A stretch of DNA of 63,511 bases, filler included. It is 8 parts of 8 records of this genome, joined end to end, with 100 filler letters (N's around TTAATTAATTAA, not from the genome) between each part and the next. Parts side by side here need not be neighbours in the genome. Positions count along the whole stretch, not along the records: positions 43,887 to 50,860 come from SRR31147125_1852; 7 more parts are not named here. One strand, 5' to 3'. Below the pieces are notes generated by a model. That model worked only from the letters and a program-made list of their open reading frames with translations, was not told the DNA's origin and ran no database searches. The first letter of the stretch is position 1. The number at the start of each line of letters is the position of its first letter. Positions 5,356 to 50,960 of the stretch are shown piece by piece. Made by a program: the position numbers and the translations under genes.

Positions 5356-7440
5356 TTATTTATCTCGATTTAATAGTAAAGTTACTGTTTTTCCTGCTTG
5401 TTCGTTTTGTGGTAGAGCAACTTTAATCTTTGTTTTTCCATCCTGTTGCAAGGTGTTTTCACCCGAATAGTTCCCGTTTAATGTGAGGGTAACTTCGTTT
5501 AATTTTTGTGTTGGTTCTGCCACCGAAAACTGTATTTCGTTTTCATGTTTTTTCACCATTACCAAACATGGTTCATTGGTTTCAATTCCGCCAAGAATAT
5601 TCGATTTACCGGCTTCATAAAAAACTATTCCGGCAATATTTCCATCTTTCGAAATCACTTCTTGCCTGTTCTTTTTATTGCTTATTTCAAAAGGCAGTTC
5701 CTTTTCCATTTCTTCCAAATCGGATTTTGTTGCATTCGGAACAAGCATGTATTCGTACGATGCATTTTCAGGATTTACGCCATGTTCGAAATACAGATTG
5801 AATATTTTAGATGAAATCCATTCTTTTGATAAAAGTACAGTTACGTCGGTCCATCTACCTTTTACTACATCGGTTTTTAAAGTCATTTCTGAAGCTTTCG
5901 GGAAAACATATCCAAGCTGATTGTGCAAAATCCACTTGTACTTTTTACTGTCCTTTTTTGTTTCAACCTCGCCATTTAAATATGTTTGATTAACCGATGT
6001 GGTAACAGGCAAATCTTCATCGGAATTTATGCCTGATCCCAAACAAACAATTTTATTGTTGAACATAAACCATGATTTTTTAGCAGATAAACCGAGGCGG
6101 TTGTAATCTAACACCGCAATTCCGTTTTTACCATCGGAAACGCCACCAACAAAATCGCTGGGAATACGATAACCACGCGATGTTAAAACCGGCAAAGGTT
6201 CCTCATCTTGTAAGGTTGTGGTTCCGGGTATTTTTTTCCAATCCCAAAACGGAAATATGTTTTTGTACTCTTTTCCTGTTTGATAAATATAAGTGGCACC
6301 GTCGCCAAGATAATATCCCTGAATATTTTCGGAATTGCACGACTCGGCACCAATTACCCGGTTTGAACTCATTTTTACTGAGAAAAAATAATCGGGCGTG
6401 CGTTGAATCTGAATGTCGGAACGCCAGAAATGTTTATTCCCGACCTGATTTTTATAATCGTTCGCTTTTGTATATTCTTCTGCAAAATCAGAATCGAGAA
6501 CTTCCATTTTCCTGAAATCGGCGGCCAGCTTTTCGGCTTTCTTTTGTGGATCATTGGGACCAATTTGCCGGCCACAGGAACTAATATCCATTTCATTTTT
6601 CCAGACTACCCATTGTTGTCCTTCCAAAAGATAATTGCGCAAAATTTCAACCTTACTCTCGTCGAATTTAAACTGTGTATTTCGTAAAATTGAAATCCAC
6701 TTTATCATATCGCCAATGTAAGAAAGGCCGTAGTTTCCAAATTGCAATTGCGGTCCGTGTTGGTGGTACGACCAATCGGGCTGAACACCTTCGCTGGTGC
6801 TAACCACCAACTCTTCTTTTATCGATGCACTAGCCTTTTCAATCATTTCAGCATTGCGGGTAAGTAAGGAGGTTAGCAAAACATTTCCCGATTGCCAGAC
6901 TTTATTTTGCCCGGTTCGCCCAATTTCGCAGCGGTTTAAAATGGGCATGGCTTTTTTAATCTGTTCCTCCGAAAGCTCGGGTTCCATTAAAAAAAGTGTA
7001 GGTAATAATTGCATAGGTGTACCTATTACCGGATGCCACCAATTGGGACTTACAAAATCATTATTAAGCCAATGATTTAATGCCGCATGGATTTTGATAG
7101 AAACCTCAGGTTTTTGATAAAATTCAGTCTTGGGATTTTGGTAGGCCTTTGCTATGGCCTCCATTCTGTTTAAATGAAAACGTGGCGACCAGTACCCACG
7201 TGTTTTACTCGGATAATCTACATCGGGCCAGGTTCCATCAACGGACAAATCACTCAATAACTGAGCGACTTCCTGAACATCAACATCTTCGTTTAAAAAA
7301 TAAGTAACTACATTTTTATGCAACTGCTGCAACTCGTCGGGATAAACTTTTGTATGTTCGAATAAAACCGGGGAAGTATTTTGGCTACATGCAGCAACTA
7401 CAAACAGACTAATTAATAGAAGGTAAAAGCAAGTTTTCAT
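5356..7440 (-). CDS. Polysaccharide lyase family 8 (chondroitin/hyaluronate lyase-like) lipoprotein
   Basis: Lipobox VAAC; NWWHPVIGTP, TGQN, EGVQPDWSYHQHGPQLQFGNYG, WDWKKIPGTT, AKKSWF motifs. Confidence 0.9.
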   Translation of the reverse strand: MKTCFYLLLISLFVVAACSQNTSPVLFEHTKVYPDELQQLHKNVVTYFLNEDVDVQEVAQLLSDLSVDGTWPDVDYPSKTRGYWSPRFHLNRMEAIAKAYQNPKTEFYQKPEVSIKIHAALNHWLNNDFVSPNWWHPVIGTPMQLLPTLFLMEPELSEEQIKKAMPILNRCEIGRTGQNKVWQSGNVLLTSLLTRNAEMIEKASASIKEELVVSTSEGVQPDWSYHQHGPQLQFGNYGLSYIGDMIKWISILRNTQFKFDESKVEILRNYLLEGQQWVVWKNEMDISSCGRQIGPNDPQKKAEKLAADFRKMEVLDSDFAEEYTKANDYKNQVGNKHFWRSDIQIQRTPDYFFSVKMSSNRVIGAESCNSENIQGYYLGDGATYIYQTGKEYKNIFPFWDWKKIPGTTTLQDEEPLPVLTSRGYRIPSDFVGGVSDGKNGIAVLDYNRLGLSAKKSWFMFNNKIVCLGSGINSDEDLPVTTSVNQTYLNGEVETKKDSKKYKWILHNQLGYVFPKASEMTLKTDVVKGRWTDVTVLLSKEWISSKIFNLYFEHGVNPENASYEYMLVPNATKSDLEEMEKELPFEISNKKNRQEVISKDGNIAGIVFYEAGKSNILGGIETNEPCLVMVKKHENEIQFSVAEPTQKLNEVTLTLNGNYSGENTLQQDGKTKIKVALPQNEQAGKTVTLLLNRDK

Positions 7441-8531: not shown

Positions 8532-8631
8532 NNNNNNNNNNNNNNNNNNNNNNNNNNNNNNNNNNNNNNNNNNNNTTAATTAATTAANNNNNNNNNNNNN
8601 NNNNNNNNNNNNNNNNNNNNNNNNNNNNNNN
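8532..8631. other. Artificial contig spacer (N44-TTAATTAATTAA-N44)
   Basis: Identical 100-nt N-flanked six-frame stop linker, repeated seven times in the window. Confidence 0.98.
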
Positions 8632-9213: not shown

Positions 9214-9566
9214 GTGCAATCGACTGCACTTTTAAAACTCTAAATGCAAATGTGCAATCGATTACACCACAAAAAAGCCTGATAATGATAGGCTGAAATC
9301 TCTTAAACTACTGACATCACTATGTATTTTTAAGAACGCATTCAAAGAAAATCGGCAATTTTATGTCGATTTTCTCTCGTTTGCCCGAAGAAATGATTGG
9401 CTTCTGGCATGAAAACAGTTCGCATAATGTACAAATTCAGTCAAAAACAGCCTTCAAATAGATAAACGACAGAACATGCGAATACACCATCAACCTCTGT
9501 CAAATTGATTCTGAAGCGATTTCAAAGCTTTTGCACATCATAACATTGGCGTGCAATCGATTGCAC
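9214..9566. promoter_or_regulatory. Three copies of the 16-bp palindrome GTGCAATCGATTGCAC
   Basis: 9214-9229 GTGCAATCGACTGCAC, 9252-9267 GTGCAATCGATTACAC, 9551-9566 perfect palindrome. Confidence 0.6.
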
Positions 9567-9749
9567 TCAGAGGAAATAGATCCAACATGAAACATAAGGT
9601 TAGGCCACTCACTGTAGGAAAATTTTTCTGAATATATAATGGCAAAGATTTTCTAGTCATTTCAAACATTTACAGATTCAATTATACATATTTAAAGTCA
9701 TTACAAATTAGCACAAGGCTTTATTAGTAAATAGATAACTTAAAAAAGC

Positions 9750-9778
9750 TTGACATTTAAAATTACTGTAAATACAGT
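9750..9778 (+). promoter_or_regulatory. Sigma70-type promoter with an overlapping palindrome
   Basis: TTGACA (9750-9755), 17 bp, TACAGT (9773-9778); ACTGTA-AA-TACAGT overlaps the -10; GGAGG RBS at 9847-9851 before ATG 9859. Confidence 0.6.
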
Positions 9779-43886: not shown

Positions 43887-43976
43887 CTGGTTGAAATAAA
43901 CCACCGAAACATAGCCACATTCGAAAGCAATTTCTTTAATGGGCAGCTGAATATCACGTAGCAGTATTAGTTTAGG
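43887..43976 (-). pseudogene. Remnant of an AraC-family HTH C-terminus
   Basis: Minus frame PKLILLRDIQLPIKEIAFECGYVSVVYFNQ, preceded by an in-frame stop. Confidence 0.5.
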
Positions 43977-44127
43977 TTAAATCTTTTTGATTCTTTCAGA
44001 CAGTTCTAATCCATAAATTTCATCTGATTTCGAAAAATTTCGTAACTTATATAAGCAAAAGAAACTGCTTTTCAGATAATTAGTGCTGAATCAACGATAA
44101 TAATTATTTAAAAACTTAAAGCAGGTT

Positions 44128-44697
44128 ATGGAAAAGATAAAACTCTTTCTTGCTTCCTCCAACGAATTAAAATATGAACGAGAACGGTTCGAGATTGAAA
44201 TATACCGAAAATGCAAATCCTGGTTTGATAAAGGTATTTTTCTCCATCTCGATATATGGGAAGATATGACGGCTCGCATGTCACAAACTGGTTCACAAAG
44301 TGAATACGATAAATTTGTGAAGGATGCCGACATTTTTATTTTTCTTGCATATTCCAAAGTTGGTATGTATACCGAAGAGGAGTTTGAGCATGCTTTTGGT
44401 CAGTTCACATCCACACAAAAGCCTTTCATTTTTACATATTTTAAAACACTTCCGAATAATGCAGAAGATAGCTTAGCTAACTTTAAAAAGAAACTAAGCG
44501 AACTGAAGCATTTTTATGCATATTTCAACGACGTTAATGATTTATGGAACCAGTTTAATAAAGAATTAGAGCGATTGGAAGTTGTTGGATTCACTGAAAA
44601 CAAAAAGTCAGAGAAAAATACCAGGGATACCATTATCTCGCAAACTGCCGAGAAGATTTACAATATTGACAAAATTGACAATGCAAAATTTGATTGA
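44128..44697 (+). CDS. TIR-like / DUF4062-like protein with a C-terminal 17-aa repeat motif
   Basis: IKLFLASSNELKYER, DIWED, SQSEYD...DADIFIFL...KVGMYTEEEFEHA...PFIFTYFK; ends QTAEKIYNIDKIDNAKFD. Confidence 0.65.
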   Translation: MEKIKLFLASSNELKYERERFEIEIYRKCKSWFDKGIFLHLDIWEDMTARMSQTGSQSEYDKFVKDADIFIFLAYSKVGMYTEEEFEHAFGQFTSTQKPFIFTYFKTLPNNAEDSLANFKKKLSELKHFYAYFNDVNDLWNQFNKELERLEVVGFTENKKSEKNTRDTIISQTAEKIYNIDKIDNAKFD

Positions 44698-44703
44698 TAA
44701 GTC

Positions 44704-46050
44704 ATGGCAGATACAATAAATACAGAAAGTGACAATAACATTTTAATACAGGGTGTTACCGGAAGTTCTATTACTGTAAATATTAATGGGCAAACACAGG
44801 AAATTGAAAAAAGATTAGATGTATTACAGGCTTTAATGGAGCAAGTGGCTGCCAAATCGATTCAATCTGCTGATAAGATATATAACATCGGCAGTATTAC
44901 AAATGCAAATTTTGGATATTTGGTTGATCAGGCAGGATGGAATAAATTATTGCCATCCGAATTATCAGAAAATCTTTTGGAAGGCAAACGTTGGATTGAA
45001 TGCCTGCAACTGGAATTACAGAATAAACAAAAAATATCGGTTGGTAATAAGCCCTGGAATATTTTTCAAAATTATGGCTGGTTAATAGAAACTTTTTTGC
45101 AGAAAATGGGAACTGCTACCGGGCAGGAAAAAAATCTTCGTCGCCTTTCGTTTATGACAGAAGCCTGGTACAGCTCTCTTCGGTACCTTTGTTATATTCA
45201 AATTGCGCAAATTCTCCAGATGGAAAACAAACCAAAGCTGGGCATCATTTCCGACTTTGTTCAAATGGAAGGCAACAGATATGTAGATTTTGATTTTATC
45301 AGTCTTCTACTTACTTCTTCCGACATAGTAGGCCCAAATAGTTTTCTAATAGAAATTAATAAGTTTATTGAGGAACTAACAGATACTGAATCGGCATTAT
45401 ATGGAACGGCTCTGTTTTTAGAAGAGCAGCGAAACAAACTAATGACAAACAGTATAGCCGAAGATGAAAAATTGTCTGGTCTGCTTGATGAATACTTAAC
45501 AGCTCTTGTTTATTGGCTGCGTAAGATTTCTTTTCTGTGCAAATACAGGATGGTTTCCATAAAGGAAATAAATTTGAATTACCGTCTGGGATCAGCAAAA
45601 AACTTTGTGCATCTCTATGGCGAACTACACGGTTTATATAGCGAGCTTGGTTTATCTGATGAAGATTACAATACCAAATCTATTGAAAACTTTTTTACCT
45701 ATAACAAAAGTATACTGTTATTTAAGGGCCGTGATATTTCTTCGGGCATGGACGGATTAAAAAATCAAGATACCTATCTGTCACTTTCTCCACTTATTAT
45801 CGACCAAAGTGTTTATGCCGGAAAGCCAACACAAACTCCCGAAATATTTTATTATACCGGATACGATAAAGCCAAACGGCAGTATAACTATTCTCAATAC
45901 AAGAACGAACTGGCATTTGGTGAGAAAAATAAAATTAGCTCCAACAAGGCATTAAAAGTAATGGCACAAAATAATATGCAGCCTCGATTTGACGAATTGT
46001 TTGAACAACTGGACGATGTTTTTAAACTCCTTAAAATTAAACAAGCATGA
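44704..46050 (+). CDS. Uncharacterised 448-aa protein with N-terminal Asn/Ile-rich motifs (candidate adaptor)
   Basis: Clean ORF, 6 bp after the previous gene and overlapping the next (ATGA); carries NNILIQGVTGSSITVNING and QSADKIYNIGSITNANF. Confidence 0.8.
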   Translation: MADTINTESDNNILIQGVTGSSITVNINGQTQEIEKRLDVLQALMEQVAAKSIQSADKIYNIGSITNANFGYLVDQAGWNKLLPSELSENLLEGKRWIECLQLELQNKQKISVGNKPWNIFQNYGWLIETFLQKMGTATGQEKNLRRLSFMTEAWYSSLRYLCYIQIAQILQMENKPKLGIISDFVQMEGNRYVDFDFISLLLTSSDIVGPNSFLIEINKFIEELTDTESALYGTALFLEEQRNKLMTNSIAEDEKLSGLLDEYLTALVYWLRKISFLCKYRMVSIKEINLNYRLGSAKNFVHLYGELHGLYSELGLSDEDYNTKSIENFFTYNKSILLFKGRDISSGMDGLKNQDTYLSLSPLIIDQSVYAGKPTQTPEIFYYTGYDKAKRQYNYSQYKNELAFGEKNKISSNKALKVMAQNNMQPRFDELFEQLDDVFKLLKIKQA

Positions 46051-47738
46051 GCCAGTCAAAATCACCATTCAAGTTTCTCGACTCGTATCAGCAGTCTGAT
46101 GCAGATGTGTTTTTTGGCCGCGATAAAGAAACGGAAAATCTGTACAATGCCTTAAGTGGAGTAAAACTACTGATGGTTTACGGTCCTTCCGGAGCAGGAA
46201 AAACAAGCCTTATTGAATGTGGCCTGAGAAACCAGTTTTCTGATGCCGATTGGTTTGCTCTTACTATTCGAAGGGGAACAGATATAAATGTATCTGTTTT
46301 TGCAGCCATTAACGATGCTCTGAATGAGAAGATACAGATTAATCAGGAAACCAAAATGCCGGCTGATTCGAATATGGAATTTGGCGATGCCATTGAGAAT
46401 TTATTTGCCGAACGTTACCAACCGGTGTACCTGCTGTTCGATCAGTTTGAAGAATTGTTGATTTCAGGAGAAAAAGAGGAAAAGATAAAATTCTTTACCC
46501 TGATTAATAAATTGATTAGAAACAAAGTTCCATGCCGGATTTTAATCATTATGCGGGAAGAATTTATCGGGCACTTATCGGAGTTCGAAATACTCTGTCC
46601 AAGTATCTTCCAACATCGTTTCAGAGTAGAGAAGATGGGGCGTAAAAATGTGGAGGAAGTTATTTTTAAAATTTTGGAAGCTCGCAGGTATCAGGCTTTT
46701 TTTGATGTAGATGATATTAAAAAGATTATAGAGAGCATATTGGCGAAACTGCCCGATAAAAGAAAAGAAATAGAACTGGCACATGTACAAGTGTTTTTGG
46801 AAGAACTGTGGGATAGGGCGCAAAACAGAAAAAAGGAAGACAGTAAACCGGTACTAAGTTATAAGCTGATAAAAAAGACAGATAATCTGGAAGGTATTCT
46901 GGAGAGTTTCTTAAAAAAACAAATTACCGAACTCGAAAGCATTTACCGAAAAGGTGTGCCGTTGGAATTACTGGCTACATTAATTACAGAACGTTTTACC
47001 AAGCTTCAGTTAAGCGAATTGGAAATAAAGGCCGAGTTAGAACGTAAAGAAATAATAACTGAAAAACCGGTAACCAAACTTTTAAACGAGTTGGTTGAAC
47101 CACGCCGTATTTTACGCACCATAAAAATTGAGAACGAAACAAAGTACGAATTAAGCCATGATGTTTTGGCTCTGGTTGTAGGGCAAAACCTTACCGAAGA
47201 AATGAAAATGCGGGAGAAAGCAGGCGATATCTATAACATGTACAGTGAAAGACAAGGATTGTTTTCACAAGATGATATTGATTACCTGCGGCCTTTTCAA
47301 CAATATTTGGCGTATCCTCAGGATTTGCTGGCCAGGATAGACGAAAGTATTACAGCTATAAAACAGAGGGACAAGCAGGAAAAGGTTAAAACAAAAAAAC
47401 GTTTACGCACTTTATACGCCCTTTCAAGCGCTGCTTTAATTGCTCTTGTGGTTGCTATATTCTTTTATTTTTCGGCAATTAGTGCTAAAGAATCGGCTAT
47501 TGCTGAAAGAAATAAAGCAAATAAGGCTTTGGCTGACTTTAAAAAGGCACAAGCTGCCAAAGATGCACTTGTGTTTTATGATTTAGAAAGCCGGGCCAAT
47601 TTAATAATTGAGGTTGGAGGTTCTCCTATTGATATTGTTGGTAAAATGGATAAACTCTGTTCTGAGCACATAGATAGTGCTCGTTGGCAAACTAAAATAA
47701 AATTGATTAAAGAAAGTCTCAAAAATAATGAAAGATGA
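46047..47738 (+). CDS. nSTAND1-type P-loop NTPase with a C-terminal transmembrane helix
   Basis: SPFKFLDSY...FFGRDKE, Walker A GPSGAGKTS, Walker B LLFDQFEEL, IMREEF, YELSHD; TM LYALSSAALIALVVAIFFYF. Confidence 0.85.
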   Translation: MSQSKSPFKFLDSYQQSDADVFFGRDKETENLYNALSGVKLLMVYGPSGAGKTSLIECGLRNQFSDADWFALTIRRGTDINVSVFAAINDALNEKIQINQETKMPADSNMEFGDAIENLFAERYQPVYLLFDQFEELLISGEKEEKIKFFTLINKLIRNKVPCRILIIMREEFIGHLSEFEILCPSIFQHRFRVEKMGRKNVEEVIFKILEARRYQAFFDVDDIKKIIESILAKLPDKRKEIELAHVQVFLEELWDRAQNRKKEDSKPVLSYKLIKKTDNLEGILESFLKKQITELESIYRKGVPLELLATLITERFTKLQLSELEIKAELERKEIITEKPVTKLLNELVEPRRILRTIKIENETKYELSHDVLALVVGQNLTEEMKMREKAGDIYNMYSERQGLFSQDDIDYLRPFQQYLAYPQDLLARIDESITAIKQRDKQEKVKTKKRLRTLYALSSAALIALVVAIFFYFSAISAKESAIAERNKANKALADFKKAQAAKDALVFYDLESRANLIIEVGGSPIDIVGKMDKLCSEHIDSARWQTKIKLIKESLKNNER

Positions 47739-50323
47739 CACGGAATATTCTAATACTCGTTTGTATGATTGTGTTTGTTACAGTTGCAGCACAAGGGCAA
47801 AGCAATTACACCGAAGCTATAAAGCAAGGCGATAAGGCACGCGATAAAGGAGAATATGAATTAGCAATAAATAAATACTTTGCTGCGGAGGCATTTGCAC
47901 CCTCGCAAAAAAAGAATGTAAAATTAAAAGTAGATACTGTTTTTAATTTAATAAATAAACTAAAGGTAGATGCCGAGAATGCCTTAATTATTGCCAAAGA
48001 ACAAAAAGCAGAAGCTGAAAAACAAACCCAAAAAGCACAGAGCCTTACACTTACAGCTTTTGCGATAGAGCAATTCGATAAAAATCCAACTTTATCCATT
48101 CGTTTGGCAGAATTGGCATGGAAAAGAGCTCCAAGCTTCCCACCTGCCCTTCCGTTACAACGAATTGTCTCTAAAGCATTCTATAAATCTTTGGAGAATA
48201 AGAATATTTTTTATTTTAAAAATTTTGTGCACGGATATGACGTAGCACATGTAGGATTTTCACCTGATGGTAAAAAAATTGTGACGGCTTCTTATCTTGA
48301 AGGAACTATTGTAATATGGGATGTTTTATCTGGTAACAAGATTCATAAATTCACAGGGCACATGGCTGAAGTAAACCAAGCTGAATTTTCACCTGATGGT
48401 AAAAGGATTGTGACGGCTTCTGATGATCATACGGCTAAATTATTGGATACTGAACTGGGAAATGAGTTAACTACATTAATTGGACATAAAGAAGCGGTTG
48501 TTAGCGCTAAATTTTCATTCGATGGAAAAAGAATTGTGACTGCTTCTTGGGATAATACAGCAAAGATCTGGGATACTGAAACTGGGGCTGAACTCAACAA
48601 TCTCAAAGGACATAGCGATATTGTATGGAATGCAAAATTTTCGCCTGATGGGAAAAAGATAGTGACTAGTTCTGACGATAAGACAGCAAAACTATGGAGT
48701 GTTGAATCCGGTAAGGAATTGCATACATTTTTTGGGCATGAAGGATGTATCTGGAGTGTGGCATTTTCTCCTGCATGCATAGATGACCCTAACGGTGGAG
48801 GGAAGATAGTGACAGCTTCTGAGGATGGAACCGTGAGAATCTGGGATGCAAAATCAGGGAAAGTAATCCATAAACTAGCAGGACATAAAGATGATGTTTA
48901 CGACGTTGAATTTTCTCCCAGTGGGAAAAAAATTGTGACGGTGTCAAAGGATAATACAGCAAGGATCTGGGATACAGAATTTGGACAAGAACTCTATATG
49001 TTAAAGGGGCATGTGGACTTTGTTTTTAGTGCAAAATTCTCACCTGATGGAAAAAAAATATTAACTGCTTCTGAAGATGGAACGGCAAAACTATGGGATG
49101 CAGAATCAGGGAAAGAGTTACTTGCTTTAAAGGGGCATGAGGCCTCTCTAACCTGCATAGAGTTTTCATCTGATGGAAAAAAGATTGCAACTTCTTCTTG
49201 GGATAATACGGTGAAAATATGGACTGTGGATTCAAAGAATGTAATTCATACACTGAGGCATGAAGGTTTTGTTAACAACTCATTATTTTCACCAGATGGG
49301 GAAAAGATTGTAACTGCTTCCTATGATAAAACTACAAAGTTATGGGAAGTCGAATCAGGCACAGAGCTCTTTACTCTTTCAGGAAATATGGATAATGTGT
49401 ATGCTGAATTTTCATCAGATGGGAAAACGCTTCTGACTGTTTCGGGAGAAACAAGGCTATGGGATGCAGAATCTGGAATCTGCCTACGTAAGCTTATGGG
49501 GCATAAATCCTATATTGGAAGTGCTGTTTTTTCACCTAATGGAAAAAAGATTGTAACTGCATCTGATGATATAACAGCAAAGGTCTGGGATACTGAATCA
49601 GGTGCAGAACTCCATACTTTAAAAGGACATGAGTCTAGGATTAGTAATTCGATATTTTCACCTGCTGGGAACAAGATTGTAACTTCCTCCTGGGATAATA
49701 CAGCAAAGATATGGGATGTGGAATCAGGTGCAGAACTCCAAACTTTAAAAGGACATAAGTCTTGGATTAGTAATTCAGTATTTTCATCGGATGGAAACAA
49801 GGTTGTGACTTCCTCCTTGGATAATACAGCAAAGATATGGGATACAGATTCAGGGAAAGAACTCTATACGTTATTCCATGAAGGTGATGTATATAAACCA
49901 GAGTTCTCTCCTGATGGGAAAAAGATTATTACTTCCAGCTTGGGAGTAGTAATGGTTTGGGATGTAGAATCTGGCAATGAGATAACTCAACTAAAAGGAC
50001 CTGGGATTTATGTCATTAATCCTAAATTTTCACCTGACGGGAAAAAAATTGTGACAGGAGCTGGTGAAGGTATAGCAGTTATTTGGGAAACAGATTCAGG
50101 GAAAGAAATAATTAGACTCAATATGCACGAGGACATGATTTGTAACACCGCATTTTCTCCCGATGGAAAAAAGATAGTCACAGCTTCCTTGGATAAAACT
50201 GCAAAAATATGGCTTACCCCGGAAGGAATTATAGATTGGTTGGGCAAGCAAAAGAATATTTACAAGCTAACCAATGAAGACCTGAAAGAGCTTGGTATTG
50301 ACTTTATTGATTTAAAAGAATAG
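47735..50323 (+). CDS. Exported WD40 protein (16 repeats) with signal peptide and an N-terminal helical/TPR-like region
   Basis: MTRNILILVCMIVFVTVAAQGQS; 16 repeats of GH...FSPDGKKIVTAS.D.TAKIWD. Confidence 0.92.
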   Translation: MTRNILILVCMIVFVTVAAQGQSNYTEAIKQGDKARDKGEYELAINKYFAAEAFAPSQKKNVKLKVDTVFNLINKLKVDAENALIIAKEQKAEAEKQTQKAQSLTLTAFAIEQFDKNPTLSIRLAELAWKRAPSFPPALPLQRIVSKAFYKSLENKNIFYFKNFVHGYDVAHVGFSPDGKKIVTASYLEGTIVIWDVLSGNKIHKFTGHMAEVNQAEFSPDGKRIVTASDDHTAKLLDTELGNELTTLIGHKEAVVSAKFSFDGKRIVTASWDNTAKIWDTETGAELNNLKGHSDIVWNAKFSPDGKKIVTSSDDKTAKLWSVESGKELHTFFGHEGCIWSVAFSPACIDDPNGGGKIVTASEDGTVRIWDAKSGKVIHKLAGHKDDVYDVEFSPSGKKIVTVSKDNTARIWDTEFGQELYMLKGHVDFVFSAKFSPDGKKILTASEDGTAKLWDAESGKELLALKGHEASLTCIEFSSDGKKIATSSWDNTVKIWTVDSKNVIHTLRHEGFVNNSLFSPDGEKIVTASYDKTTKLWEVESGTELFTLSGNMDNVYAEFSSDGKTLLTVSGETRLWDAESGICLRKLMGHKSYIGSAVFSPNGKKIVTASDDITAKVWDTESGAELHTLKGHESRISNSIFSPAGNKIVTSSWDNTAKIWDVESGAELQTLKGHKSWISNSVFSSDGNKVVTSSLDNTAKIWDTDSGKELYTLFHEGDVYKPEFSPDGKKIITSSLGVVMVWDVESGNEITQLKGPGIYVINPKFSPDGKKIVTGAGEGIAVIWETDSGKEIIRLNMHEDMICNTAFSPDGKKIVTASLDKTAKIWLTPEGIIDWLGKQKNIYKLTNEDLKELGIDFIDLKE

Positions 50324-50328
50324 TAAAA

Positions 50329-50811
50329 ATGGATTCAGAAAAATTTAAAGAATATCTTGAAAAAAGATATTACGACCAGCTAAATTACTATAGAAATTCA
50401 TCGGGCAAGAACCGGAAAAAATATAAGAGTTTTCAATGGGTATTAATTATTCTTTCTGCTATTACACCTGTGCTGGCCGCAATGCATGGCGAGAAACTTA
50501 ATACTCAGTTTGTTGTTGTAATTATTTCAGCCATTGTTGCCATATTAACGTCCGGCCTTAAAACGTTCAAATACCAGGAATTGTGGGCCAGTTATCGCGC
50601 CACTTATGAGCAACTAAAACCAGAAATATATTATTATAATTATAATGTTGGCCCTTATGGTGAACCTGAAGTTAATAAGGAATCTTTGTTTATTTCCAGA
50701 GTAGAAGCAATTTTGGATAAAGAGCACCAGGGATGGCCGCCTGCCCAAAAGCTTCGTGAGGACAAAGATAACCCCGATACAATTTTGGGTGAAGATAGAA
50801 AGCAGCCTTGA
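50329..50811 (+). CDS. DUF4231 / SLATT-like two-TM protein
   Basis: YLEKRYYDQLNYY...KYKSFQ, two TM helices, KYQELWASYRATYEQLK.E, FISRVEAIL..EH..W. Confidence 0.8.
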   Translation: MDSEKFKEYLEKRYYDQLNYYRNSSGKNRKKYKSFQWVLIILSAITPVLAAMHGEKLNTQFVVVIISAIVAILTSGLKTFKYQELWASYRATYEQLKPEIYYYNYNVGPYGEPEVNKESLFISRVEAILDKEHQGWPPAQKLREDKDNPDTILGEDRKQP

Positions 50812-50860
50812 GCTCTAAAATGACTTTCTCGTGCTTCGTCCCTATTAATCAACGATTTTT

Positions 50861-50960
50861 NNNNNNNNNNNNNNNNNNNNNNNNNNNNNNNNNNNNNNNN
50901 NNNNTTAATTAATTAANNNNNNNNNNNNNNNNNNNNNNNNNNNNNNNNNNNNNNNNNNNN
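50861..50960. other. Artificial contig spacer
   Basis: N44-TTAATTAATTAA-N44. Confidence 0.98.

Follow-up and report, generated by a model that had tools for sequence, protein, structure and literature searches.

Bacterial STAND and NLR-like (NOD-like receptor-like) systems are likely ancestors of the cell-death machines of animals, plants and fungi, and the way in which the effectors of STAND systems are attached and switched on has largely been inferred from domain maps. In the fungal HET-S/NWD2 pair, it is the NLR that carries the motif, at its free N-terminus, and the effector is a pore-former, not a TIR-like protein. Here we describe a locus from the phylum Bacteroidota, contained in a 63,511-nucleotide stretch of DNA (hereafter the window, that is, the whole stretch that was analysed), in which the C-terminus of a TIR-like protein and the N-terminal region of the protein encoded just downstream share a motif of 17 residues. 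The downstream protein, a 448-residue adaptor, is followed by an nSTAND1 NTPase. Its copy of the motif, designated E2, belongs to a small N-terminal module in which a first element (E1), a helix-like spacer and E2 follow one another (E1-helix-E2); the copy on the TIR-like protein is referred to as the tag. We put at about even the chance that this 17-residue tail is a non-covalent coupling tag on the principle of the effector-associated domains (EADs), replacing covalent fusion.

The general logic is already published, as the texts of the papers cited below describe it, in three forms, that is, EAD coupling, amyloid signalling pairs and nSTAND1 NTPases with EAD8. EAD coupling has been described in NTPase-centred conflict systems (Kaur, Burroughs, Iyer, Aravind 2020, PMC7159879; Kaur et al. 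2021, PMC8195603). In the descriptions given there, a small non-enzymatic element of the core component recurs on an effector from the neighbouring gene, a feature that the locus shows in part; as there, other genomes have the same effectors joined directly to the core. The EAD network that these papers describe includes nSTAND1, TIR, caspase and EAD11. The module also behaves as they describe for an EAD in that it is found at the N-terminus of the adaptor accompanying nSTAND1, and in that TIR-like and EAD11 domains are also fused directly to the adaptor. In contrast to the EADs so described, what the effectors bear is not the complete module but a 17-residue part of it (E2, in some cases an E1-like element plus E2); Pfam contains no family dedicated to the module, one relative reaching the cut-off of EAD10; and the constant core of ~370 residues next to nSTAND1 is absent from the EAD descriptions in the text of these papers.

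The amyloid pairs comprise BASS1-10, found on Bell/NLR pairs (Dyrka et al., bioRxiv 2020.01.06.895854), and BASS11 of Bab/Agp, which is experimentally amyloid (Ibarlosa et al., bioRxiv 2024.11.07.622273). The locus resembles the BASS pairs, as described in these preprints, in having a short motif at the C-terminus of an effector and near the N-terminus of a receptor encoded by adjacent genes, in its TIR and CHAT/caspase carriers, in its all-in-one fused alternatives and in an N/I-rich, strand-prone sequence. The receptor of Bab/Agp is, as here, not a STAND protein, and on this count the remark of a first-pass annotation, made from the sequence alone, that a non-STAND partner is unusual calls for some qualification. 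In contrast to BASS, the receptor copy starts at residue 54, inside a strand-helix-strand module that precedes a folded core, and the shared element is shorter (17 versus ~25 residues) and the tags rich in charged residues, BASS being compared here by its description; also, the system is from Bacteroidota, and the main text of the Dyrka preprint (bioRxiv 2020.01.06.895854) contains 0 mentions of Bacteroidetes. No BASS profile is among the Pfam families matched in the window proteins or in 40 module-bearing proteins. With HET-S/NWD2 of Podospora, as the same preprint describes it, the locus would share an arrangement in which an NLR-side element templates or engages effector-side elements, possibly two pseudo-repeats.

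The third precedent is the nSTAND1-EAD8/trypsin-EAD8 architecture at diversity-generating retroelement (DGR) loci (bioRxiv 2023.09.22.558884), in which, as described, a short adaptor element is likewise common to an nSTAND1 system and a nearby effector gene and is thought to assemble sensor and effector. There, however, a whole-domain EAD is found on the NTPase itself and the sensor has a C-type lectin/FGE fold, whereas here there is a peptide tag, a separate constant receptor protein and a WD40 sensor. A literature search found neither the motif, nor the E1-helix-E2 module, nor the ~370-residue core that partners nSTAND1, nor the use of a module sub-element as a peptide tag; the supplements and figures of the BASS and EAD papers lay outside this search and may list related motifs. 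The locus is a compact and testable case in which a 17-residue peptide appears to substitute for covalent fusion, with natural fused and split versions as controls and three types of cargo (TIR-like, caspase and EAD11). It is also a possible bridge between the EAD and amyloid-motif literatures, in which comparable gene arrangements go by different names; should the tag be sufficient for recruitment, it could provide a small docking handle for protein engineering.

A 17-residue motif shared by two adjacent genes

The features that carry the motif, and the NTPase gene that follows them, are these:

44128 to 44697, plus strand: TIR-like (NPHP3/DUF4062-type) effector, 189 residues, with a variable polar linker and the C-terminal tag (Pfam NPHP3, E 0.033, below the cut-off)
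44641 to 44691, plus strand: C-terminal tag, a copy of E2 (motif profile, 33.7 bits)
44704 to 46050, plus strand: adaptor, 448 residues, with the N-terminal E1-helix-E2 module and a conserved core of ~370 residues (homologue alignment)
44734 to 44793, plus strand: element E1 (NNILIQGVTGSSITVNINGQ), adaptor residues 11-30 (homologue alignment)
44794 to 44862, plus strand: amphipathic, helix-like spacer from E1 to E2 (helix predicted from the sequence pattern)
44863 to 44913, plus strand: element E2, the copy of the motif on the adaptor (motif profile, 37.3 bits)
46047 to 47738, plus strand: nSTAND1 NTPase, 563 residues, its gene overlapping the adaptor gene by 4 bp (Pfam PF20703, E 8.7e-39)

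The tag reads QTAEKIYNIDKIDNAKF (residues 172-188 of the effector) and is followed by one residue (D) and then by TGA TAA; E2 reads QSADKIYNIGSITNANF (residues 54-70 of the adaptor). The first-pass annotation had placed the two stretches at exactly these coordinates and had described them as 11/17 identical in otherwise unrelated proteins. A BLASTP comparison of effector and adaptor agrees on both points: 11/17 residues are identical and 13/17 positive (26.6 bits, E 5e-4), and this is the sole significant similarity between the two proteins, the runner-up segment having an E-value of 0.65. At the DNA level the copies are identical at 37/51 positions, and, as had also been noticed, several of the identical residues are specified by different codons, that is, 5/11 (A, I, Y, N and I; both counts by eye).

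A hidden Markov model (HMM) of the motif, with 17 columns built from 103 unique instances, gave zero off-target matches of at least 9 bits in 5189 six-frame open reading frames (ORFs; 468,790 residues, from the window and 50 loci). When three whole genomes (4.5, 6.1 and 5.2 Mb) were scanned with a 20-row alignment of the motif, the matches were confined to the expected tag and E2 sites and one weak site, which belongs to a third, divergent system of the same kind. The match between the two proteins thus exceeds chance. In the 20 rows (10 tags and 10 adaptor copies), positions Q1, N8, I9 and F17 are invariant.

Tag, module and fusion in related loci

For the TIR-like protein, 813 homologues were found, similar to it in length. 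Among the matches listed, the tag is present at 12 bits or more in 109/120 homologues, always at most 4 residues from the C-terminus, and the remaining 11/120 have diverged, N/I/V-rich tails; the linker ahead of the tag, which had been described from the window as charged and is real, is the most variable part of the family. The label 'TIR-like' given to the effector by the first-pass annotation is roughly right, with a qualification: for the TIR domain (PF13676/PF01582) the window protein falls below threshold, its only Pfam match being the one to NPHP3, and 35 homologues compared with Pfam (E at most 0.1) match NPHP3 (24), DUF4062 (2) and TIR_2 (1), while UniRef names two homologues DUF4062. 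We retain the label because of these sub-threshold matches and because the protein is homologous to the fused N-terminal domains described below, which come near TIR_2 (26.7 versus 28 bits). A PDB sequence search with the TIR-like profile returned noise only. Identification of the tail as a type IX secretion system (T9SS) or other sorting domain was considered and rejected, there being no Pfam match to such a domain in the window protein or the 35 homologues.

The tag is portable, being also the C-terminal end of a Peptidase_C14 caspase (E 8e-18) and of three EAD11 proteins (E 3e-18 to 5e-21), which are unrelated to the TIR-like family and are each encoded just upstream of an adaptor. A region-restricted protein search identified further carriers, that is, three caspases (P0389, P0390 and P0394) and a tagged member (P0393) of a second TIR-like subfamily, the one usually seen fused. 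In several effector tails an E1-like element precedes E2, without the helix.

The adaptor has 339 homologues and, in a library of 1.8 billion, 227 representative clusters; a search with one homologue, P0175, retrieved only Bacteroidota clusters without a name. The 448-residue protein has no match in Pfam, NCBIfam, PADLOC or PDB, and comparison of the adaptor profile with PDB sequences yielded 0 matches at an E-value of at most 10. Among the matches listed, E2 is found at 12 bits or more in 97/120 homologues, at a fixed site, once per protein and never twice, and E1 at 8 bits or more in 116/120; the spacer between them, ~23 residues long, has an amphipathic pattern from which the helix is predicted. 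A tblastn search of plasmids and phages with the module found no match. Assignment of the core to EACC1 was rejected, since EACC1 is described as a domain with a single transmembrane helix.

For the comparison of gene order we used 45 loci: the window, one genome contig (from genome G001, the 1 locus found by a single-protein query scan of genome contigs), a second system in the same genome and 42 metagenome loci. At least 100 nucleotides are available past the adaptor in 40 of these, which are therefore evaluable for the downstream gene; an nSTAND1-type ORF lies downstream in 39/40, adjacent to or overlapping the adaptor gene in 38. This points to the adaptor as a previously unnamed constant partner of nSTAND1 NTPases. 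The first-pass annotation had called it unusual for the partner motif to reside on an adaptor; the adaptor is indeed a separate protein, but it is the constant neighbour of nSTAND1, and the module is also found directly on NACHT/NB-ARC-type NTPases (see below).

The constant feature of these loci is accompanied by a variable adaptor N-terminus. It consists of the bare E1-helix-E2 module in 15/45 loci; a TIR-like or EAD11 domain is fused ahead of the module in 11/45; EAD11 is present instead of the whole module in 12/45; a caspase/CHAT-like His...Cys domain, recognised by eye, is present in 2/45; and the N-terminus is missing in 5/45. Because EAD11, a published coupling domain, replaces the module in 12 loci, the module sits in an EAD slot. 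The fused N-terminal domains belong to the same families as the tagged proteins, namely TIR-like (phmmer E 1e-22 to 2e-32) and EAD11, and long adaptors with a fused TIR-like domain account for 55/120 of the homologues among the matches listed. In the two loci with the caspase/CHAT-like domain (L039, 385-2166, and L040, 3727-5508), the adaptors are 594 residues long, and the domain (~245 residues, by eye) directly precedes the core, without the module.

Tag and fusion alternate. A tagged ORF is found just upstream of 9/15 adaptors with a bare module and of 0/25 adaptors with a fused N-terminus (Fisher 1.8e-5, a value that overstates independence because the loci are related to one another). These 9 loci contain 10 tagged ORFs. 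Complete tagged TIR-like ORFs are present in the window, L001, G001 contig 14, L015 and L022, and L009 contains a 5'-cut tagged ORF in which 60 residues match the TIR-like C-terminus, giving six TIR-like ORFs in all; L015 has two tagged genes in a row, for a Peptidase_C14 caspase and a TIR-like protein, and L021, L041 and L046 have tagged EAD11 proteins. The pairing of an effector C-terminus with the N-terminal region of the next protein, first noticed in the window, is thus conserved, position-locked, portable and interchangeable with direct fusion.

The N-terminal module alone also matches proteins outside the adaptor family: a 1282-residue NACHT/nSTAND5-type NTPase (P0345), an AAA_16/NB-ARC-type fragment (P0383) and a second family of ~455 residues, a genomic example of which (in G001) is followed by an nSTAND1-type NTPase and then a WD40 protein. 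In P0345 and P0383 the module is at the very N-terminus. The module of P0383 exceeds the cut-off of Pfam EAD10 (PF19954; 26.8 versus 24.1 bits). However, only 2/40 module-bearing proteins match EAD10 at an E-value of at most 1 and the window adaptor does not match it at that threshold, so the module is at best a distant relative of EAD10; a scan of 401 genomes of the phylum with Pfam EAD10 gave 0 matches above the cut-off.

We also observed a third element, I-x-A-G-G-D-V-x-I-G-D. It occurs in the linker of 21/55 adaptors fused to a TIR-like domain (P0121, residues 191-201, and 20 others) and in EAD11-tag proteins; P0215, P0222, P0238, P0364, P0383 and the L021 ORF at 347-811 also bear it, the last with a weak match to Pfam EAD10 (18 bits). 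Its glycine run recalls BASS11 as described, the likeness being to the description only.

A proposed coupling tag and its alternatives

We favour the interpretation of the tail as a coupling tag because the tag is locked in position, the adaptor copy is at a fixed site, the tag is portable, it alternates with fusion, the module occupies a slot that EAD11 fills in other loci, its partner is constantly accompanied by nSTAND1 and the whole follows the logic of the EADs. Read in this way, a STAND-type conflict system (immune or cell-death) would have the adaptor and the nSTAND1 NTPase as its constant part, and the output would be attached at the N-terminus of the adaptor, the slot to which many relatives have a TIR-like, EAD11 or caspase/CHAT-like domain fused. 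The window adaptor has only the small E1-helix-E2 module there, and the TIR-like effector is encoded by a separate gene just upstream; the tail of this effector, the copy of E2, would pair as a strand with the module, at a roughly stoichiometric ratio, and so take the place of the covalent link. The WD40 sensor would trigger oligomerisation of the NTPase, by which the docked effectors would be gathered and switched on. The physical binding of tag to module, the geometry of that binding and activation by proximity are steps that we infer; comparison with related operons suggests that the tag allows effectors with genes of their own to connect to a common signalling core.

A comparison of 54 short (split) with 55 long (TIR-like-fused) adaptors among the matches listed bears on the role of E2. 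The median E2 score is 31.4 bits in the short and 18.7 bits in the long adaptors (p 2e-9), whereas E1 (33.9 versus 33.8 bits, p 0.16) and the core (634 versus 620 bits, p 0.15) are alike in both. An HMM built from tags only gives the same contrast (11.9 bits in the short and 2.3 bits in the long forms, p 5e-9), and the hydrophobic-[YF]-N-hydrophobic centre of E2 is intact in 43/54 short versus 20/55 long adaptors. The weaker E2 of the fused forms fits a role of E2 as the docking site for a separately encoded tag.

Several observations weigh against the coupling tag, or against its simplest form. After correction for kinship, the relaxation of E2 in 11 independent pairs gives a median p of 0.22 in a sign test (as the mean of 200 random pairings, 4.5 pairs differ in the expected direction, 0.9 in the opposite direction and 5.6 do not differ); the trend has the right sign and is not established. 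E2 is moreover retained in 39/55 fused forms, so it must have a further role that is independent of a separate effector. In three loci (L017, L018 and L031), which share lengths and coordinates and are probably one sequence, a bare-module adaptor is present but the available DNA contains no tagged ORF. In L024, the upstream TIR-like gene has a tail too diverged for the motif HMM, and in L027 and L028 an EAD11 protein is encoded 1.2 kb upstream, with a tail that is E1-like rather than E2-like. Within the 10 + 10 rows, position 10 is D/E/Q in the tags versus G in 9/10 adaptor copies, and position 13 is D in 10/10 tags versus T/N/D in the adaptor copies; these differences make the pair complementary and not strictly homotypic. 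By eye, the tags look closer to the tags of other loci than to their own partner copies and share class-specific residues (D at position 13 in 10/10) that the partners lack, which would speak against the EAD feature of adjacent copies being closer to each other than to copies elsewhere.

Amyloid-like templating, which the first-pass annotation had proposed, is a possible but less probable alternative. In this mechanism, E1 and E2 of several adaptors would stack into a cross-beta or beta-solenoid nucleus on activation of the NTPase, and the effector tails would be templated onto it, so that the effector domains polymerise and are activated. It would account for a layout like that of the published pairs, with effector C-termini, adjacent genes, all-in-one fusions and, according to the preprint text, TIR2 and CHAT among the carriers (bioRxiv 2020.01.06.895854), and for an N/I-rich motif with the four invariant residues given above. 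The tails with an E1-like element and E2 but no helix recall the effector-side pseudo-repeats described for HRAM and for BASS1/6, and the module is found at the extreme N-terminus of the NTPases P0345 and P0383. The P0383 match also counts in favour of templating: according to the EAD literature, TPR-GreA/B-C-PIN proteins can have EAD10 at their N-terminus, and this slot is the one occupied by BASS11 in Agp, as described. However, E2 of the adaptor is located between the helix and a large conserved core and not at a free end; the whole module is kept in the fused forms, where templating would be needless; the tags are K/D/E-rich, whereas BASS motifs are described as K-depleted; the shared element falls short of the ~25 residues of BASS; and the match to EAD10 is limited to the two proteins noted above, with the window adaptor not among them.

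With similar reserve, we suggest that E1, E2 and I-x-A-G-G-D-V-x-I-G-D may be rungs of a new Bacteroidota family of beta-solenoid/amyloid signalling elements, distantly tied to EAD10 and perhaps to BASS11. The receptor would then be a bipartite nucleus (E1-helix-E2) on a dedicated partner of nSTAND1, onto which tails of one or two rungs would be templated. If true, the names effector-associated domain and amyloid signalling motif would, in at least some cases, stand for one device, and amyloid templating would be what activates a TIR-like enzyme and a caspase in a lineage that is Gram-negative and not actinobacterial.

It is improbable that the tail is a C-terminal signal for something besides the adaptor (e.g., membrane or secretion targeting, degradation or self-association), its likeness to E2 reflecting common descent only. 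Such a signal would agree with the extreme C-terminal position of the tag, with the persistence of E2 in fused forms and with the membrane-linked parts of the operon described below (the SLATT protein, the hydrophobic segment of the NTPase and the signal-like N-terminus of the WD40 protein). Secretion and sorting domains are, however, without a Pfam match in the window protein and the 35 homologues; in the examined loci and the three scanned genomes, tagged genes occur only immediately upstream of adaptors with a bare module; and it is E2 specifically that is relaxed in the fused forms, a difference that is not significant after the kinship correction.

The junctions between tagged and adaptor ORFs bear on the origin of the arrangement. 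In 7/10 cases the tagged ORF is in frame with the adaptor ORF (the window, at 44692-44706, and the junctions of L001, L004, L009, L015, L021 and L041); six of these junctions have a single stop codon and 1 to 4 sense codons before the ATG, and the window junction contains two. In a FastTree phylogeny of 109 core sequences (from P0121-P0240), fused and split adaptors change into one another at least 16 times. The in-frame layout is probably a record of repeated fission and fusion, and the choice between a fused and a tagged effector appears to shift readily in evolution. That the tail is no more than a functionless relic of this process, in which a split gene or repeated joining left a duplicated junction segment, would suit both the in-frame junctions with their single stops and the interchange on the core tree, but is highly improbable, as a relic would decay, whereas the tag is kept in nearly all homologue clusters among the matches listed (109/120) with its positions invariant and the linker free to vary, recurs on the unrelated caspase and EAD11 proteins and, in the window, differs from E2 in the codons of five of the 11 shared residues.

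Two further observations concern the junctions. Readthrough of the stop codon, joining both ORFs, was considered and rejected: the stops are mostly TAA (6/9 junctions adjacent to an adaptor), and the window has TGA and then TAA. In L025 (793-2565), a gene for an adaptor with EAD11, module and core has one in-frame stop between E1 and the helix, which may be a sequencing error, the mark of a pseudogene or ongoing fission.

The operon and its source contig

The whole operon of five genes, encoding the TIR-like protein, the adaptor, the nSTAND1 NTPase, a WD40 protein and a SLATT_1/DUF4231 protein, is on one contig, and 4-bp overlaps join genes 2/3 and 3/4, that is, the adaptor and NTPase genes and the NTPase and WD40 genes. 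The contig and the genes beyond the NTPase are these:

43887..50861, no strand: assembly contig that bears the operon, with N-run/TTAATTAATTAA/N-run linkers at both ends
47735 to 50323, plus strand: WD40 repeat protein, 862 residues, its gene overlapping the NTPase gene by 4 bp (Pfam WD40, E 2.4e-136, 15 stretches)
50329 to 50811, plus strand: SLATT_1/DUF4231 protein with two transmembrane segments (Pfam PF14015, E 5.2e-22; PF18181, E 1.6e-14)

The window appears to be a series of assembly contigs strung together by linkers that contain stops in all six frames. The TTAATTAATTAA word occurs 7 times (0.07 expected), at 8576, 15255, 23301, 35090, 43831, 50905 and 57941, and N runs flank it at both of the sites inspected (43831 and 50905). 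Gene neighbourhoods that span these points are therefore artificial, and, since such linkers are present at both ends of the contig, genes beyond 43887..50861 are no true neighbours of the operon.

The NTPase is placed in the nSTAND1 family by a score of 134.7 bits for PF20703 (cut-off 27.1) over residues 7-374, and the P-loop GPSGAGKTS is visible in its translation. It has a single hydrophobic segment ~85 residues from the C-terminus with a K/R-rich stretch before it, and the N-terminus of the WD40 protein, the presumed sensor, is hydrophobic, like a signal peptide or transmembrane segment (both by eye); the two features together mean that the sensor may lie outside the cytoplasm.

The product of the fifth gene scores 54.4 bits for PF18181 (cut-off 26.3) and 113.6 bits for NCBIfam NF033634 (cut-off 41), which assigns it to the SLATT family; from its sequence it is a candidate membrane effector. 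SLATT-type proteins with two transmembrane segments are encoded in 3 of the examined loci (the window, L010 at 9241-9765 and L024 at 6446-6967 on the minus strand). We speculate that the SLATT protein is a second, membrane-acting output, perhaps answering a product of the TIR-like enzyme.

The genome of L001 (G001) encodes three systems with an adaptor and nSTAND1. The third (L061, contig 14, 88000-99500) has a divergent adaptor of 446 residues, then an nSTAND1-type NTPase and, after it, a WD40 protein; beside them lie a 541-residue protein that is TIR-like at its N-terminus and another NTPase of the nSTAND1 type (domains by eye), and the region looks like a defence island.

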